From IMG/VR virus record IMGVR_UViG_3300045988_136456: a stretch of DNA of 35,330 bases. One strand, given 5' to 3'. Source of the DNA: a virus. The notes below the pieces were generated by a model. That model had not been told where the DNA came from and ran no database searches. It saw nothing but the letters and a program-made list of their open reading frames with translations. The translations under genes and the position numbers were made by a program. Shown piece by piece: positions 4,254 through 10,024 of this stretch (its first letter is position 1; each line of letters starts with the position of its first letter).

Positions 4254-4534
4254 CGTGGTGGCAGGTGTGCCTCATCGCGGTCTGCGTGATGGGCGCGGTC
4301 ATCGTCGTGGCCTCCGCGCTGGCGATCCTCGCGTACTGGCTCGAGGGCGTGCGCAAGCGCGACAAGTACGTATGGGCGGCCATTTTTAACCTGACGTGGT
4401 ACTGCATCGTGAGTCTCGTGCTCACCAACAACGACAAAATTGTGCCGGACAGCCTGACCGTAGCGTGGTTCGCCGCGTGGACGGCAGAGCTGGCCCTGCT
4501 CGCCAACATCAAGATCAAAGGGAAGGATGATTGA
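4250..4534 (+). CDS. Small three-TM membrane protein, holin-like
   Basis: ATGA overlap with the previous stop. Three hydrophobic segments and a charged C-terminus (KIKGKDD). Confidence 0.55.
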   Translation: MTWWQVCLIAVCVMGAVIVVASALAILAYWLEGVRKRDKYVWAAIFNLTWYCIVSLVLTNNDKIVPDSLTVAWFAAWTAELALLANIKIKGKDD

Positions 4535-4535
4535 A

Positions 4536-4756
4536 ATGAAACTGCAATTCAACGACAAGGTCTACGACGTTTTGAAGTGGCTGTGCCTTATCGCGCTGCC
4601 CGCGCTCTCCGTGCTCTACAGCGCGCTGGCGGGCGTGTGGGGCTGGCCCTACGCGCAGGAGGTCGCGACACCATTAACGCCGTGGTGGCCTTCGTGGGCG
4701 CGCTCATCGGCATTTCCACGGCGAACTACAACAAAGACAATGGCGCAGGCAAGTGA
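4536..4756 (+). pseudogene. Dp-1-family-like holin interrupted by a 1-nt frame change near 4665-4670
   Basis: The N-terminus is in frame 0 (MKLQFNDKVYDVLKWLCLIALPALSVLYSALAGVWGWPYAQEVA). The expected C-terminus is in the -1 frame (DTINAVVAFVGALIGISTANYNKDNGAGK, stop 4754-4756). As assembled, frame 0 runs on into the endolysin, which gives track ORF 4527-5312. Confidence 0.6.
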
Positions 4757-5312
4757 CATCCTTGCCGTGGCGGTCAAAGAGATCGGCACGGTCGAGCAGA
4801 GCGGCAACCGGCAGAAGTACGGCAAAGCATACGGCATGGACGGCGTGTACTGGTGTATGCAGTTCGTGTGGTGGTGCTTTCAGCAGGCAGACAAGGCGCT
4901 CTTTATGGACGGCGGCAAGACGGCCTCCTGCGGCGAGCTGATGCGCTGGGCGCAGGCACACAGGCAGTGGGTCACCACGGGCTACCGGCCCGGCGACGTG
5001 CTGATCTACGACTTGCCCGGCACGGCGTACAAGACCGACCATTGCGGCATCTGCGAGAGCGTCAGCGGGCAGTATGCCACCGCCATCGAGGGCAATACCT
5101 CCAACGGCAACACCGGCAGCCAGTCAAACGGCGACGGGGTCTACCGCCGCAAGCGCAAGCTGTCGCTCGTGCTCGGCGCGTACCGCCCGAAGTACACGGA
5201 CTATCGCGCCCAGCTCCAGAAGCGGGCGGGGTTGGAGGACAAGACGATGGACTACCTCGCGGCGTACAAGTACGGCAGCGACCTGATCCGTAAACTGGCA
5301 ACGATGAAATAA
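4740..5312 (+). CDS. CHAP / NlpC-P60-type endolysin
   Basis: EQSGNRQKYGKAYGMDGVYWCMQFVWWCF is a CHAP Cys motif, with a downstream His in DHCGI. It is the last gene of the lysis cassette. Confidence 0.75.
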   Translation: MAQASDILAVAVKEIGTVEQSGNRQKYGKAYGMDGVYWCMQFVWWCFQQADKALFMDGGKTASCGELMRWAQAHRQWVTTGYRPGDVLIYDLPGTAYKTDHCGICESVSGQYATAIEGNTSNGNTGSQSNGDGVYRRKRKLSLVLGAYRPKYTDYRAQLQKRAGLEDKTMDYLAAYKYGSDLIRKLATMK

Positions 5313-5767: not shown

Positions 5768-6799
5768 TCAAAAGCTCTTTTTCATCTTCTCCGCTGCGGC
5801 GGCGATCGCGTCACCGTAGACGTGCGTATAGATGTCCATTGTCGTGGACAGCTTCGCATGACCGAGCAATTTCTGCGCCGTCTTGGGGTCAACTCCCGCC
5901 TCAAACAGCGCGGTCGCATAGCCATGCCGGATCTGATGCAGAGAGACCGTCACGCCGCTGGCGGCGCAGTACGCCTTGTAAAGCTTGCGGAAATCGCCGT
6001 CTGTCAGCAGCGAGCCGTCCGGCTCGGCAAACAGATACCCTTGCGGCAATTTTTTCGGCAGAAGCGCATCCAAGGCGGGCAGGAGCGGGACCTCTCGCAC
6101 ACCGGCGGCTGTCTTTGGCTCCTTGATCTTCGCGCCGTGGTCGTAATAGACGGACCGGCGGATATGCACGCGCATGGCTTTGCGGTCAATGTCGGCTCCG
6201 GTCAGGGCCTGCGCCTCGCCCCTGCGGCAGCCGGTGTAGTAGATCAGCGCCGGGAACAAGCCAAAGGGCAAATTCGTGGATGCCTTGATCTTGGCGATCT
6301 GGTCTTTGTCGGGGGCCTCGCGCCGCGTCTGCGGAAGATTGCGCGGCACGCGGACGGCCTGCGCCGGATTGTAATTTGTTTTTCCTTGCAGCTCCGCCCA
6401 GCGCAGGACCTGGCGGATGACCTGCAGCTGCATGGCGACGGTCTTCCTCGCCCGCGCGGCGGCAAAGTCCCGAATAAATGCGTCGATCTCTTTGGCGGTG
6501 ATACTGCCGACCTGCCGCGCCCCAAATTCCTCCACGGCTCGGCGCAACGCCGGCTTATAGTTTTTCACCGAGTTCGGCTCGAGCTTCAGCTCGGCTTCAT
6601 CCCACCACTGCTCTGCGATCCTCGAGAAGGTCGTCTCCGCGTCGATCTCCGCTTGTAGCTGGGCTCGGTCAAACGCCTTGACCTTTTCCCATACTTCCTT
6701 GTCGGTTTTCCCGCGGAAGGCCTTGCGCTTGCCGTTGATGCGGAGGATCGTCTCATGCAGACCGTCCGGTCGGATGTAATAGCTGGGATATTTTGGCAT
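5768..6799 (-). CDS. int: Tyrosine recombinase / phage integrase
   Basis: Contains YYTGCRRGEAQAL (Arg I) and LHQIRHGYATALFEAGVDPKTAQKLLGHAKLSTTMDIYTHV (HxxR...H...Y). Confidence 0.9.
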   Translation of the reverse strand: MPKYPSYYIRPDGLHETILRINGKRKAFRGKTDKEVWEKVKAFDRAQLQAEIDAETTFSRIAEQWWDEAELKLEPNSVKNYKPALRRAVEEFGARQVGSITAKEIDAFIRDFAAARARKTVAMQLQVIRQVLRWAELQGKTNYNPAQAVRVPRNLPQTRREAPDKDQIAKIKASTNLPFGLFPALIYYTGCRRGEAQALTGADIDRKAMRVHIRRSVYYDHGAKIKEPKTAAGVREVPLLPALDALLPKKLPQGYLFAEPDGSLLTDGDFRKLYKAYCAASGVTVSLHQIRHGYATALFEAGVDPKTAQKLLGHAKLSTTMDIYTHVYGDAIAAAAEKMKKSF

Positions 6800-6903
6800 T
6801 GCGCCGCCTCCTCTCTGTTAAATATTCCAGTAGCCAACCGGCGCGCGGTTGCGTTATAATTCCATCCGGCGCCAAATACACAAGGGTGCCCGAGGGAGCT
6901 AAA

Positions 6904-7020
6904 ATGTACGACATCGCCTACATCCTCGCACTGTTTGAGTCCCTGCCCGCGCATGACCAGCACGAGATCCTCGAGCTGGCTGCACAGCTCGCAGCCGAAT
7001 CCCAGCGCAGCGATCCGTAG
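6904..7020 (+). CDS. Small ORF (38 aa) resembling the C-terminal tail of XRE-type repressors
   Basis: GAGGGAG RBS. LFESLPAHDQHEILELAAQL is comparable to LFAELDPAEQTKVVGDMLRR in the repressor at 8371-8730. Confidence 0.35.
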   Translation: MYDIAYILALFESLPAHDQHEILELAAQLAAESQRSDP

Positions 7021-7096
7021 ACCTCCGCGCATTTTCCCTCTCCGAGTTCGCGCGAGCTCAGCAAAGGCCGCCGCCCTCATGGATGGCGGCCTTTTG
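7010..7096. repeat. Direct repeat A1, about 95% identical to 7667-7754; ends in a bidirectional hairpin terminator
   Basis: Aligned by eye with about 4 substitutions and 1 indel. Hairpin is AAGGCCGCC...GGCGGCCTTTTG. Confidence 0.85.
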
Positions 7097-7112
7097 CGTT
7101 GGAAAGAATTCC

Positions 7113-7141
7113 TTGCATTTTCGACACGGCTCTGCTATCCT
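7113..7141 (+). promoter_or_regulatory. Candidate promoter of the toxin mRNA
   Basis: TTGCAT, 17-nt spacer, TATCCT. Confidence 0.4.
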
Positions 7142-7230
7142 ATCTGTGGCGCTGCCAGTACAACGGTACAGGGTAGGCGGTTGGCTCCTCCATCCCGGAG
7201 GGGACTTCTTGCCCCTCCAAGAGAGGGGTG

Positions 7231-7320
7231 ATGCGTATGCTTACATATTCAGAGCTGTTCGAGTTCTGTCTTGTGGTCATAGGGGTCATTGGCCTGTGTT
7301 TTCAGGCAAAAAAGAAGTAA
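7231..7320 (+). CDS. 29-aa hydrophobic peptide, Hol-Tox-like type I toxin candidate
   Basis: Translates to MRMLTYSELFEFCLVVIGVIGLCFQAKKK, too short for the ORF track. It has one TM segment and a KKK tail. The SD (GAGAGGGGTG) can pair with an upstream CCCCTCC. Confidence 0.6.
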   Translation: MRMLTYSELFEFCLVVIGVIGLCFQAKKK

Positions 7321-7405
7321 CCGCCTCACGCTTCCCCAAGCAGGCGGTTACTCTTTGAGCAACTAACCGGGGAGCTGACCGTCTACCGGCAGCGCCCTTC
7401 GTTTG
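7305..7405 (-). ncRNA. Candidate antitoxin small RNA, convergent with the toxin gene
   Basis: Minus-strand promoter TTGACA-17-TATACT (7441-7413). Minus-strand terminator is hairpin 7351-7317 followed by TTCTTTTTT. The RNA overlaps the last toxin codons and the 3' UTR. Confidence 0.5.
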
Positions 7406-7412
7406 TACTCCA

Positions 7413-7441
7413 AGTATAGCCGCCAAATTTCAAGTTGTCAA
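7413..7441 (-). promoter_or_regulatory. Near-consensus sigma-70-type promoter for the small RNA
   Basis: On the minus strand: TTGACA (7441-7436), 17-nt spacer, TATACT (7418-7413). Confidence 0.55.
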
Positions 7442-7488
7442 GGTTTGCTTTGAACTTTTCTGCGGTGCTGGTGACGTTATAATCGATG

Positions 7489-7722
7489 CTATCGTTGATG
7501 GCCCTCCCTGTCACGGGGAGGGCTTTTCCCGTGCCCGAATCGGGCACTTTTTTTATTTTTATTTTTGCGCCGGAGCATATCGCCGACGACTCTGGTTTGC
7601 TCTGCCGGGTCGAGCTCCGCGAAGAGGTCGATGAAGGGCGCATAGCGCTCGTCGAGGACCTGCGTGGCGATCCGTAGACCTCCGCACATTTCCCCCTCTC
7701 CGAGTTCGCGCGAGCTCAGCAA
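7489..7722 (-). pseudogene. Remnant copy of the repressor 3' end
   Basis: 7527-7668 is about 97% identical to 8346-8487 and encodes TQVLDERYAPFIDLFAELDPAEQTRVVGDMLRRKNK. No HTH domain precedes it. Confidence 0.7.
7531..7547. repeat. Palindrome family copy (GTGCCCGAATCGGGCAC)
   Basis: 17-bp perfect palindrome followed by a T-run on the + strand. Confidence 0.9.
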
Positions 7723-7754
7723 AGACCGCCGCCCTCATGGGTGGCGGCCTTTTG
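7667..7754. repeat. Direct repeat A2, partner of 7010-7096
   Basis: See A1. Confidence 0.85.
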
Positions 7755-8336
7755 TTATTCGTCAGCGTTTGCGATCAGCGTTATTGCCGCACCGTAGCTT
7801 TTCCCGTTTTCTCCGCCGAATACTTTCAGCGTAATTGCGTCGGTAAATTCAAGATCGTTAAAAACGGCGTCAAGGTTTTCCTTTGCAATGCAGCCTATTT
7901 GGTCGCCGTTGACTTTGACTGCCAGTGCGCGCTCGCCCTTGTAGTCAAACTCATCGAGAGACACTTCGCAATCTTCATAAGGCGGCTCACAATTTGCGAT
8001 AGCGCCAAGAATTTCCTGCCGCGAGGTTCCGTCCTCGTTGTCAAATGATTCTCCGACTACGTCATAATGATGGCGGAATGACGTGACACTGCTGGCTTTA
8101 ATCTTAGGCGCATACTGGCGTTCAACTCGTTCACGTTCCGCTTTTGTCTTTTCAATTTCTTCGTCAAGTTCATCAAGGTGGGCCTGCGTTTTCTTCAGCC
8201 GTTCCTCGGCAGCCTGTTTTCGATGGAGTTCAGCCTGCTGTTCGCGTTCAGCCTCACGCTTGTCGTCAAAATGCCATTTGACGCACAGCCCCACATCAAT
8301 CGCAATCGCCGCATATAGGAATATGACTGAGTTCAT
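7755..8336 (-). CDS. Membrane-anchored coiled-coil protein with a HIRAN-like C-terminal domain
   Basis: ATG at 8336 lies after GGAGGAG. N-terminal TM is VIFLYAAIAIDVGLCV. The EREQQAELHRKQAAEERLKK segment is coiled coil. C-terminus is VVGESFDNEDGTSRQEIL...ALAVKVNGDQIGCIAKENLDAV. Confidence 0.55.
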   Translation of the reverse strand: MNSVIFLYAAIAIDVGLCVKWHFDDKREAEREQQAELHRKQAAEERLKKTQAHLDELDEEIEKTKAERERVERQYAPKIKASSVTSFRHHYDVVGESFDNEDGTSRQEILGAIANCEPPYEDCEVSLDEFDYKGERALAVKVNGDQIGCIAKENLDAVFNDLEFTDAITLKVFGGENGKSYGAAITLIANADE

Positions 8337-8349
8337 GCGCTCCTCCCCC

Positions 8350-8366
8350 GTGCCCGAATCGGGCAC
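8350..8366. repeat. Palindrome family copy (GTGCCCGAATCGGGCAC)
   Basis: Lies between the repressor stop (8371) and the RBS of the HIRAN-like gene. Confidence 0.9.
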
Positions 8367-8370
8367 TTTT

Positions 8371-8730
8371 TTATTTTTTATTTTTGCGCCGGAGCATATC
8401 GCCGACGACTTTGGTTTGCTCTGCCGGGTCGAGCTCCGCGAAGAGGTCGATGAAGGGCGCATAGCGCTCGTCGAGGACCTGCGTGGCCGTGCCGGTCTCC
8501 CCCAGCAGGTCGGAGACCGTGCAGCCGAGATATTGCGCGAGCTGCTGAGCTTTGCCAAGCGATGGAGATTGCCCTTTTTTCTGGTTTGTCAGAAAATCCT
8601 TGCCCGCACCGCTTTCTCGACAGGCTACGGTAGGGGGGACTCCCTTCTGCTTGCATCTTATCTCAACATTTCGCACAAAGATTTCGTTGTTCAATGGTAT
8701 CACATCCTCTCTGCGTTGTTTGAAATTCAC
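8371..8730 (-). CDS. XRE-family HTH repressor, CI-like
   Basis: HTH segment CKQKGVPPTVACRESGAGKDFLTNQKKGQSPSLGKAQQLAQYLGCTVSDLL. Transcribed divergently from an early + strand promoter. The start codon is uncertain (GTG at 8730). Confidence 0.75.
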   Translation of the reverse strand: MNFKQRREDVIPLNNEIFVRNVEIRCKQKGVPPTVACRESGAGKDFLTNQKKGQSPSLGKAQQLAQYLGCTVSDLLGETGTATQVLDERYAPFIDLFAELDPAEQTKVVGDMLRRKNKK

Positions 8731-8757
8731 AAAAATCTAAAATTAACTTCAAACCTA

Positions 8758-8786
8758 TTGACAATCTATAATTAACGATTTACTAT
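8758..8786 (+). promoter_or_regulatory. Early rightward promoter in the switch region
   Basis: TTGACA, 17-nt spacer, TACTAT. Flanked by CTAAAATTAAC / CTATAATTAAC and a tandem ATTTACT x2, which may be operators. Confidence 0.55.
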
Positions 8787-8834
8787 TTACTCACGGTGAG
8801 CCGCGGCGCACCGGATGAAAGGGGGTGGAAAGAC

Positions 8835-9035
8835 ATGGCACCAAACCCAGTTACGATCGCTAAGGTCATTCGGGTCATCGAGATCCGCGAAGTCCGCGGC
8901 GATGGGACGCACGATGACCCGGTCCGTGTGGCAACGTCCTATTGGTCGATGGACGGGAAGCAGCTCGCGGTGTACGATCCCGTCAGACGGGATCAATGCC
9001 AAGAGCTTTCTCAAACGTCAACTCCGAGTCGATGA
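8835..9035 (+). CDS. Small hypothetical protein
   Basis: RBS AAAGGGGGTGGA. Its 3' end overlaps the convergent gene 8983-9678 by 53 nt. Confidence 0.5.
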   Translation: MAPNPVTIAKVIRVIEIREVRGDGTHDDPVRVATSYWSMDGKQLAVYDPVRRDQCQELSQTSTPSR

Positions 9036-9678
9036 AATGGATCATCGCCTGGATAAAAGTTTTCATCGTCTTGACATCCAGATCTTCGTGCTTACGAACA
9101 TAATGGGTCTCATCGTTTCCGATCCAAGTTGCGCGCTGAGCCAATGTTTGTATTCTGCCGTCTTCGATTCGTCGAAGACTTTGCCCGAGGGCTTCGGCTT
9201 TGATAGCCTCCTCATCAGCGGGAAATTTATGGCAAAGGTAGTCTTTTACAAGATACTCCAATGCCTTGCGGTATCCGATGCCGCAAATCTGGGACAATCC
9301 TTCGGCCTCTGCCTGCTGAGCCTGTCCATAGGTTTCGACGAAGGTCAGCGACAGTCCAAGGATATCTTCGCTGAAGGGTTCACGGCTTGGTGTCATCGGA
9401 AAGAGTTCGTACTCATGCATAAAGTCTGCTGTACGGCGATATGCCGGCTCGATGGCTTGACGAAATCTTCCGAGGAAAACCTTGCGGCACTTTGGACACA
9501 GAAACATAGCGTATAAATTGCAAAGCGTTGTTCCCTTGTCCGTGCTGTCCATCACATATTTTGAATTCAGAATAGTTGGTTTCAGAGCGTGATGGCATAT
9601 CGGACATTCATCAAGCTCAGGGATTTCAAAGTCAATCTTATACACACCATTATCATCAAAAGCCGTAATGCGCACCAT
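8983..9678 (-). CDS. Zn-ribbon plus DUF4145-like domain protein, low-GC moron
   Basis: N-terminal CPICHH...CPKC. C-terminus is GIGYRKALEYLVKDY...TWIGNDETHYVRKHEDLDVKTMKTFIQAMIHFI. GC is visibly lower than in neighbouring genes. Confidence 0.6.
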   Translation of the reverse strand: MVRITAFDDNGVYKIDFEIPELDECPICHHALKPTILNSKYVMDSTDKGTTLCNLYAMFLCPKCRKVFLGRFRQAIEPAYRRTADFMHEYELFPMTPSREPFSEDILGLSLTFVETYGQAQQAEAEGLSQICGIGYRKALEYLVKDYLCHKFPADEEAIKAEALGQSLRRIEDGRIQTLAQRATWIGNDETHYVRKHEDLDVKTMKTFIQAMIHFIDSELTFEKALGIDPV

Positions 9679-9754
9679 AATACCCCGCCCTTTCTACATT
9701 AACTCATAGTAAACCATATCACACCGAGAGAGAAAAAGCAAGGAGGTGTTCCCA

Positions 9755-10024
9755 ATGAGGATCCGAGAATTACGAGAGCGCCGCGGTCTGACCGGCACGG
9801 AGCTGGCCCGCATGACCGGCGTGACGCCGCCCGCCGTGATCGGGTGGGAGAACGGCAGCAAGACGCCCACGACGGACAAGCTGCCGACCATCGCGGCCGT
9901 GCTGGAGTGCGAGGTCAGAGATCTCTACGACGACGAGACGCTTCGCGCCGCGAGCGAGGCGGCGAGGGCCGCGGTGGCGGCCAAGGGCGCGGAAGGCGCG
10001 AGAGCGCTCGCCGCAGGAAAGTGA
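9755..10024 (+). CDS. XRE-family HTH protein, Cro-like
   Basis: AAGGAGG lies 8 nt upstream of the ATG. Sequence MRIRELRERRGLTGTELARMTGVTPPAVIGWENGSKTPTTDKL. Confidence 0.75.
   Translation: MRIRELRERRGLTGTELARMTGVTPPAVIGWENGSKTPTTDKLPTIAAVLECEVRDLYDDETLRAASEAARAAVAAKGAEGARALAAGK

Follow-up and report, generated by a model that had tools for sequence, protein, structure and literature searches.

What is encoded at the junction between the integrase and the repressor-type genes of the virus record IMGVR_UViG_3300045988_136456, where a very short open reading frame (ORF) faces a near-consensus promoter on the opposite strand? The complete record of 35,330 nt is called the window below. The original prediction, made from the letters of the window, was that the region 7098-7445 contains an unannotated type I toxin-antitoxin cassette, consisting of a Hol-Tox-like peptide and a convergent small RNA. 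Our computational analysis leads to a similar answer. The locus probably encodes a functional pair of a peptide and an antisense RNA, i.e., a type I toxin-antitoxin cassette with the architecture of bsrG/SR4, in a temperate phage of gut Oscillospiraceae, and we assign a probability of roughly 0.78 to this reading. Sequence and comparison support a coding gene, both promoter motifs, a terminator of the antisense RNA, covariation in a long helix of the toxin mRNA (helix P1), and two alternative helices that involve the region of the Shine-Dalgarno (SD) sequence. The convergent type I arrangement is supported by the conservation of the coding pattern, of both promoters, and of the antisense terminator, and by an mRNA architecture like that of bsrG/SR4. 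The cassette is real and unannotated, while its design is already known from bsrG/SR4.

The toxin ORF and its family of relatives

The small ORF at positions 7231-7320 of the plus strand is present as predicted and encodes the 29 amino acids MRMLTYSELFEFCLVVIGVIGLCFQAKKK, and GTG 7228 and ATG 7237 are found in the same frame. The SD sequence GAGGGG (7223-7228) is separated from ATG 7237 by 8 nt, but from ATG 7231 by only 2 nt. Because the relatives start at the equivalent ATG and because the SD spacing suits this position, ATG 7237 is probably the start codon of the toxin ORF. The ORF would then extend from 7237 to 7320 on the plus strand and encode the 27 amino acids MLTYSELFEFCLVVIGVIGLCFQAKKK plus the stop codon, and the 29-residue form that had been proposed becomes the less likely alternative.

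The relatives were gathered with DNA patterns that were built from the GenBank match MT839435 and refined stepwise in IMG/VR. Species-representative genomes were scanned with GAAGTRACCGC-N45-75-GGCAGCGCCC, followed by filtering, and the cassette counts refer to the matches listed. At least about 95 related cassettes are present in Oscillospiraceae genomes and gut phage contigs. The hosts are nearly all Oscillospiraceae and other gut Clostridia, namely Oscillibacter, Flintibacter, Intestinimonas, Lawsonibacter, Dysosmobacter, Colidextribacter, and Faecalibacterium, and many of the genomes are metagenome-assembled. Cultured strains with cassettes are Flintibacter muris DSM 110149, Intestinimonas butyriciproducens An565, and Colidextribacter sp. 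OB.20, and a further isolate that bears a cassette is Lawsonibacter sp. LCP25S3_F5. The family comprises at least 78 distinct peptides of 26-32 amino acids with the consensus MVTYSELFQxCLVIIGIxxLFxQxxKKK, each of them preceded at a distance of 7-9 nt by a GGGGG-type SD sequence. An N-terminal motif of the type T-Y-x-[DE]-L is followed by one hydrophobic helix. The codon-position entropy in the family is 1.10 for the third, 0.94 for the first, and 0.60 for the second position. The third position is thus the most variable and the second the least variable, which is the pattern expected of a coding gene.

In GenBank phage records one 102-nt blastn match (MT839435, our locus L001) and one weak tblastn match were found, neither of which is annotated, and a comparison of the wider region with the same records matched only the integrase. 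A 44-residue in-frame extension of the peptide retrieved only four unnamed proteins without Pfam domains. No paper on this Oscillospiraceae cassette family was found in the literature. Homologs of the integrase or the repressor of the window are located near only 5-6 of 85 loci; therefore, a prophage location cannot be claimed for all cassettes. A second pattern, TTCCCCAA..GGAGCTGACC, was discarded as a cassette finder, because it mostly retrieves an unrelated conserved phage gene. The matches of TTCCCCAA-N-GGAGCTGACC in L015-L058 (about 30 IMG/VR contigs) have a fixed span of 64 nt and represent a conserved coding segment of an unrelated phage group.

Convergent promoters, antisense RNA, and helix P1

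The sequence and the relatives reveal a putative toxin promoter on the plus strand (7113-7141). It consists of the -35 box TTGCAT (7113-7118), a 17-nt spacer, and the extended -10 box TGcTATCCT (7133-7141, with TATCCT at 7136-7141), and transcription is predicted to start near G7148. This promoter is weak and below the reach of a consensus scan, and 84 of 94 related cassettes have the motif TTGnnn-N14-TGnTAnnnT at the corresponding position. The promoter of the antisense RNA is located on the minus strand (7413-7441), with the -35 box TTGACA (7441-7436), a 17-nt spacer, and the -10 box TATACT (7418-7413), and it agrees with the consensus at 11 of 12 positions. The motif TTGACA-N16-18-TATA[AC]T is conserved in 86 of 94 relatives, at a fixed distance and across many genomic contexts. 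Hence, both promoters that had been proposed, TTGCAT-17-TATCCT on the plus strand and TTGACA-17-TATACT on the minus strand, are present and retained in the family. A promoter scan of the region yielded four promoter-like sites, compared to 0.7 expected from shuffled sequences. The minus-strand promoter is nearer to the consensus than the plus-strand promoter, which is the expected pattern for an antitoxin.

A GC-rich hairpin that can form on both strands (7311-7356, with its core at 7317-7351) covers the last Lys codons and the stop codon of the toxin ORF. It was identified by folding, and its stem is conserved, with a compensatory change from A-U to G-C in 8 of 73 relatives. Downstream of the hairpin, the minus strand has CUUCUUUUUU and the plus strand just UCUUUG, so that only the minus strand has a convincing terminator here. 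The bidirectional terminator of the original prediction is retained for the minus strand, where the U-tract is present, but not for the plus strand, where only UCUUUG follows and where helix P1 requires read-through. In the toxin mRNA the hairpin is probably an internal stem-loop and not the end of the transcript. The U-tract of this minus-strand terminator is complementary to AAAAAAGAAG (7307-7316). Throughout the family the Lys codons are fixed as AAAAAGAAG, the complement of which is the U-tract, so that the tail of the peptide and the terminator of the antisense RNA are one and the same sequence. The read-through mRNA would probably have a length of about 370-410 nt and end at two intrinsic terminators on the plus strand (7493-7554), which were recognized by sequence and folding as GGCCCTCCC..GGGAGGGC+TTTT and GTGCCCGAATCGGGCAC+TTTTTTT.

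The positions of the minus-strand promoter and terminator predict an antisense small RNA of about 99 nt (about 7406 to about 7308, minus strand), which is the candidate antitoxin. Its predicted fold comprises a 5' stem-loop, the terminator hairpin, and the U-tract, with a folding energy of -42.5 to -48.5 kcal/mol and a z-score of -3.3. Complementarity of the predicted RNA to the toxin mRNA is complete and extends from the last four codons through the 3' arm of P1. A cmscan search of positions 6000-9000 against Rfam at E<=10 gave nothing within 7300-7445 on either strand.

Helix P1 connects the two ends of the toxin mRNA. Its 5' arm (7148-7190, plus strand) contributes the segments 7148-7156 and 7172-7190, with a local hairpin at 7158-7169 in between. 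Its 3' arm (7369-7396, plus strand) is located in the 3' untranslated region (UTR), and the minus-strand reading of this arm is the 5' stem-loop of the antisense RNA. Both arms were found in the fold with minimum free energy, by RNAalifold, and by covariation. The plus-strand RNA 7140-7405 has a predicted folding energy of -131.6 kcal/mol (z = -7.76), and none of 200 shuffled sequences was as stable. An unguided RNAalifold analysis of 73 cassettes recovered the helix between leader and 3' UTR, the helix between anti-SD and SD, a small hairpin in the coding region, and the terminator hairpin. Across the 73 relatives, pairing is possible in 98.6% of the cells of the outer P1 segment and in 92.4% of those of the inner segment, compared to 40-53% in slid controls. 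Compensatory changes on both sides are found in 7 of the 12 pairs of the inner segment, e.g., one pair of columns contains GC in 26, AU in 18, and GU in 17 cases. The P1 cells contain 132 G·U or U·G versus 22 A·C or C·A combinations, an excess which argues that the pairing is selected in the plus-strand RNA. Together, the covariation and the G·U excess argue that the toxin mRNA holds both arms and, therefore, reads through the hairpin. As the 5' arm of P1 lies outside the search pattern, the P1 covariation is independent evidence.

A 13-mer had been described as the same 5' end of both RNAs. Its two copies are indeed present, namely GGCGCTGCCAGTA at 7148-7160 and GGCGCTGCCGGTA as the reverse complement of 7384-7396, but they agree at 12 of 13 positions and are not identical. 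The interpretation as a common 5' end had to be replaced: covariation, RNAalifold, and the predicted fold identify the "shared 13-mer" as the two arms of the intramolecular helix P1 in the toxin mRNA. The occurrence of a 5' arm copy in the antisense RNA simply follows from the complementarity of this RNA to the 3' arm.

The leader of the toxin mRNA also contains a putative switch region (7185-7228, plus strand). Its elements, as seen in the sequence, are E1 (CUCCUCC, 7185-7191), in which the 5' arm of P1 ends, E2 (GGAGGGG, 7197-7203), the anti-SD element E3 (CCCCUCC, 7212-7218), and the SD sequence (GAGGGG, 7223-7228). Alternative pairings are possible, either E2:E3, or E1:E2 together with E3:SD. 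In the 73 relatives, E3:SD is paired in 95.3% and E2:E3 in 87.3% of the cells, and compensatory changes are found in both helices. Partition-function folding predicts that the probability of an unpaired SD in the window decreases from 0.13 with intact P1 to 0.01 when the 3' arm is blocked or absent. In 78 cassettes the mean predicted value decreases from 0.17 to 0.08, and blocking of the 3' arm lowers the accessibility by more than 0.1 in 34 cassettes and raises it in one. In these models, the direction of the change is consistent with a switch.

Tandem cassettes with two or three copies are common (L188, L198, L093, L096, L209, and L253). Arrays of two to three cassettes are located, for example, at 5477-6551 of L188, at 2731-4352 of L198, and on one Intestinimonas contig (L206/L218). 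Tandem copies usually differ most in the loop of the terminator hairpin, while the P1 arms are nearly constant, and the initial contact between loops may owe its specificity to the variable loop. Some loci combine the RNA elements with other peptides. L001 (275-421) encodes a peptide of 48 amino acids, MDVLNIVFSALNLL...KSKKD, which is unrelated to the family, and L091/L073 (about 848-943 in L091) encode an unrelated peptide of 31 amino acids, MGNGRWARAFRFAVCFIIILAVMIYISPKAC; the antisense promoter, the antisense 5' region, and P1 are shared in both cases. Neither peptide has a Pfam match, and the divergent cassettes L001 and L091 also fold with P1 (z = -7.8 and -7.4, respectively). It appears that the RNA scaffold is reused with different toxins. 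L006 (1700-2020), L010, and L026, which are IMG/VR sequences close to the window, contain the window-type toxin, hairpin, and P1 3' arm, and additionally an L012-type hairpin and a second P1 3' arm ahead of the antisense promoter. Such an antisense RNA gene is chimeric or partly duplicated, and it provides evidence that cassettes recombine with one another. In many relatives, the extreme 5' end of the leader forms an additional stem-loop (alignment columns 1-26; L223 4698-4725, L212, and L188), with the forms CAGGAAAGA-nnn-ATCTTTC or GGTTCC-n-GGAACC, which is absent from the window and may be a stabilizer of the 5' end.

Proposed mechanism, known systems, and alternatives

We infer a course of events that includes transcription, read-through, the binding order, a role of ribonuclease III (RNase III), toxicity, and a biological role in prophage maintenance or defence. 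The toxin mRNA would be transcribed from the weak extended -10 promoter with a start near 7148 and would code for a 27-residue, single-helix membrane peptide with a KKK tail. It would pass the hairpin at 7317-7351 and end at the terminators near 7520-7554. The leader (7148-7190) would pair with the 3' UTR of the same molecule (7369-7396) and form the long helix P1, and the upstream anti-SD would hold the SD in a helix. From the near-consensus convergent promoter, an antisense transcript of about 99 nt (7406 to about 7308) would arise, with complementarity to the last codons, to the hairpin, and to the P1 3' arm. If the analogy with SR4 holds, binding would begin at the complementary hairpin loops and spread to a duplex of about 100 bp. 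The duplex would displace the 5' arm of P1, the freed CUCCUCC could pair with GGAGGGG, and CCCCUCC would thereby be released to lock the SD; in addition, the duplex may be a substrate for RNase III. As long as the prophage is present, abundant antisense RNA would silence the toxin, while loss of the cassette or decay of the RNA would result in synthesis of the peptide and membrane damage. For the detailed order of events upon RNA binding, the chances of being right or wrong are about even.

The closest parallel is bsrG/SR4 of the Bacillus subtilis prophage SPbeta, and a mode of working like that of bsrG/SR4 is well supported. Structure probing has revealed that nucleotides 1-35 of the bsrG mRNA pair with nucleotides 232-262 and form a helix P1, that SR4 is complementary to the 3' part of the mRNA, and that its binding leaves nucleotides 1-33 single-stranded and lengthens the SD helix from 4 to 8 bp (PMC3834814). 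The first contact is made between the terminator loop of SR4 and a loop of the mRNA (PMC3834814). Both systems encode a small, hydrophobic peptide in which Lys residues cluster at the C-terminus, and both have a prophage location and a convergent antisense RNA gene with a transcript that overlaps the 3' end of the toxin mRNA, here at the sequence level. In both, the 5' end of the mRNA pairs with a 3' segment that is part of the region complementary to the antitoxin, the SD is in a helix, which is predicted here to tighten once the 5' arm is freed, and the terminator loop of the antitoxin is complementary to an mRNA loop. However, there are also differences. There is no detectable nucleotide similarity and no Rfam match of the new cassette, the peptide has 27 instead of 38 amino acids, and the family profile gives no hhalign signal with the BsrG sequence. 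The antisense RNA has about 99 instead of 183 nt and is devoid of a non-complementary 5' domain, and the hosts are GC-rich Oscillospiraceae and not Bacillus.

The characterized type I systems of Bacillus all have 3'-overlapping antitoxins and are located on prophage-like elements, and most of them depend on RNase III (PMC6562991). This includes txpA/RatA and bsrE/SR5 (TxpA/BsrG and BsrH/BsrE families; PF16935), which share the 3'-overlapping antisense RNA and the location on prophage-like elements with the new cassette (PMC6562991). A peptide motif of the type T-Y-x-[DE]-L ahead of a single hydrophobic helix is another common feature. However, RatA acts only via RNase III and without remodeling of the mRNA (PMC6562991), whereas the structure described here resembles the SR4 case. 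In addition, in contrast to these families, the window peptide has no Hol_Tox match, and most of its relatives are below the gathering score. The type I systems of Clostridioides difficile are located on prophages (PMC6563280). Those with CD0956.2/RCd10, CD2907.1/RCd9, and others also have convergent overlapping toxin and antisense genes in a gut clostridial host, and their toxins combine a hydrophobic N-terminus with a C-terminus rich in Lys, and a role in prophage maintenance has been proposed for them (PMC6563280, PMC7699646). The toxins are longer (34-53 amino acids) and were reported to be without sequence homology to the Bacillus families (PMC6563280, PMC7699646), and homology searches reported almost no TxpA-like toxins in clostridial species (PMC6563280). 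The par system of the Enterococcus plasmid pAD1 (Fst/RNA I-RNA II) likewise has convergent transcripts and a small hydrophobic toxin, with a common bidirectional terminator. In par, direct DNA repeats make the 5' regions of the two RNAs complementary to one another. In the window, by contrast, the repeat is inverted, the two RNAs carry copies in the same sense, and the complementarity of the leader lies within the mRNA itself. A par/Fst-like interaction via the 13-mer was therefore ruled out.

Several observations weigh against the interpretation as a toxin-antitoxin cassette of this type. The SD is predicted to be mostly paired even with intact P1, and hence translation is predicted to respond only modestly to the antisense RNA. 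A simple scheme, in which the mRNA with intact P1 is translationally ON and binding of the antisense RNA turns it OFF, was given up, as only the direction of the change (34 versus 1 cassettes) agrees with it and the SD is mostly paired throughout. Because the SD is mostly closed in every state, the antisense effect is described as tightening of an already closed site. Under strict criteria, a plus-strand terminator beyond the antisense -35 box was found in only 32 of 86 relatives (median 4 nt past the -35 box), compared to 10 in the opposite orientation, and the generalization that such a terminator always lies past the antisense promoter was dropped. The search pattern (GAAGTRACCGC and GGCAGCGCCC) fixed the motif at the KK-stop and hairpin start as well as ten bases of the 3' element, so that invariance at these sites, of the KK-stop motif, and of the outer P1 3' arm is partly due to ascertainment. 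Furthermore, the window peptide, in its 27-, 29-, and 30-residue forms, did not match the Pfam family Hol_Tox (PF16935) even at E<=10, and an hhalign comparison of the family profile with the sequences of BsrG and BsrE was without signal (probability 3-5%).

The proposed resemblance to Hol-Tox peptides is thus lost for the window peptide at the level of profile matches, but it recurs, weakly, in its relatives. The window peptide and the alignment of 78 peptides conform to the Hol_Tox type in form, i.e., a size class of about 30-60 amino acids, a short polar N-terminus, one central hydrophobic helix, and a charged C-terminus. The window peptide has no match to any Pfam or NCBIfam family, including Fst of NCBIfam. 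Of the 78 family peptides, 26 matched Hol_Tox at E<=0.1 and over the whole length of the profile, and the best E-value was 5.8e-6. One tested member reaches 25.0 bits, above the gathering score of 23.3 bits, and most relatives stay below it. The sequences of TxpA, BsrG, and BsrE score above the threshold of the same model, and Fozo et al. noted that some members of the TxpA family are annotated as "holin-like toxin". In view of the negative hhalign result, the link to Hol_Tox rests only on the Pfam matches of individual members. Membership is unproven for the window peptide and borderline for its family, and the profile scores support it weakly.

Could the peptide be harmless? It might be a non-toxic small membrane protein encoded by a phage moron, such as a ComI-like regulator, an antiholin-like factor, or a modulator of superinfection or competence, the level of which is only tuned by the antisense RNA. 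Several relatives have weak NCBIfam matches to the 30-residue competence inhibitor ComI (E 7e-4 to 0.09), but these are far below the cut-off of 55 bits. Some members of related families were non-toxic when overproduced (YhzE-2, and TxpA in E. coli; Fozo et al.), and an SD that is predicted to be sequestered in all states would also agree with such a function. However, the RNA architecture, with its sequestered SD, P1, and a strong antisense promoter versus a weak mRNA promoter, is that of proven toxin systems, and type I loci are typically multiplied in tandem and located on prophages. A harmless peptide is thus regarded as quite unlikely.

It is also conceivable that control occurs exclusively in cis, i.e., that P1 and the anti-SD helix render the mRNA inert, and that the minus-strand promoter is idle or serves another purpose, e.g., read-through to the integrase gene. 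The evidence for P1 and for SD sequestration is indeed independent of a small RNA. Nevertheless, 86 of 94 cassettes, from many contexts, retain TTGACA-N16-18-TATA[AC]T at a constant distance, the promoter is always followed by the hairpin and the U-tract, which would stop transcription after about 100 nt, and the U-tract is kept by the fixation of the Lys codons as AAAAAGAAG, all of which makes an exclusive control in cis very improbable. Lastly, the inverted repeat 7148-7190/7369-7396 might act at the DNA level, as the ends of a miniature mobile element or as a protein-binding palindrome, with an incidental ORF. Direct repeats flank the cassette in a recombination-prone region, and cassettes occur in many contexts and in tandem, as would be expected for such an element. 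But the ratio of 132 G·U or U·G to 22 A·C or C·A combinations is explained only by pairing in the plus-strand RNA, and on this basis an element like a miniature inverted-repeat transposable element was ruled out. Moreover, the substitution pattern of the ORF is that of a coding gene, neither promoter is located within the repeat arms, and the flanking direct repeats represent 87-141 bp pieces of neighboring genes and not target-site duplications, and a function of the repeat in the DNA is hardly credible. We thus favor the peptide and antisense RNA pair with bsrG/SR4 architecture.

Genomic context and significance

The cassette had been placed in a lysogeny module between direct repeats of 87-88 bp, and both statements hold. 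According to PHROG searches of the neighboring genes, an integrase gene (5768-6799, minus strand) is located on one side. On the other side are repressor-type genes for an XRE-like regulator (8371-8730, minus strand), a DNA-binding protein (8983-9678, minus strand), and a Cro/CII-like regulator (9746-10024, plus strand). The same searches identified a holin/endolysin gene (4527-5312, plus strand) and the terminase, portal, and capsid genes (21905 onwards, plus strand). From this gene content it is concluded that the window represents a temperate phage. The holin/endolysin gene is a single ORF of 261 amino acids, of which residues 7-48 match holin and residues 72-241 endolysin families in PHROG; it may encode a fused or signal-anchored lysin.

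The copies of the flanking direct repeat are located at 7002-7098 (A) and 7659-7756 (A'). They consist of 37 nt with 86% and 61 nt with 97% identity, separated by a 1-nt indel, and each copy contains a terminator-like hairpin. A second pair, B (7528-7668) and B' (8347-8487), has a length of 141 nt and an identity of 98%, and B duplicates the 3' end of the XRE-like gene, so that the C-terminal translation is common to both. The order at the junction between integrase and repressor is A, cassette, B, A', a gene at 7755-8351 (minus strand), and B'. It looks as if two alternative cargo cassettes of related phages have been joined in tandem via recombination at common flanks. Directly upstream of the cassette, an ORF of 38 amino acids, MYDIAYILALFESLPAHDQHEILELAAQLAAESQRSDP (6905-7020), has promoter-like sites of its own (6831-6860 and 6877-6905). 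The left flanking repeat is made up of the 3' end and the terminator of this ORF, for which PHROG gave no match.

To our knowledge, genome annotation overlooks nearly all type I toxin-antitoxin systems, and few are known in Firmicutes beyond Bacillus, Staphylococcus, Enterococcus, and C. difficile. The analysis of this locus has revealed a large unannotated family of at least about 95 loci in the Oscillospiraceae, which are dominant and hard-to-study gut commensals, and in their temperate phages. It indicates that the design of bsrG/SR4, with its helix P1 and 3' antisense RNA, is conserved far beyond Bacillus, and natural covariation adds support to it. The mechanism as such is unsurprising; the value of the finding lies in the annotation, in the covariation support for an SR4-type mechanism, and in a possible handle on prophage stability. 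The alignment of the family can be used to build a covariance model for the annotation of further loci, and the cultured strains that bear cassettes are suitable for tests of prophage maintenance or phage defence.

A more speculative extension is that the conserved unit is not the toxin but the RNA scaffold, i.e., the P1 arms, the antisense promoter, and the nearly constant antisense 5' region, and that the antisense RNAs of different cassettes cross-neutralize. We consider this unlikely. If the antisense 5' regions did cross-react, the small RNA of a prophage could neutralize cassettes of the chromosome or of rival phages, or the reverse. The cassettes would then constitute an anti-addiction or superinfection-control network among the phages of gut Oscillospiraceae, in which the variable hairpin loops would set the specificity.

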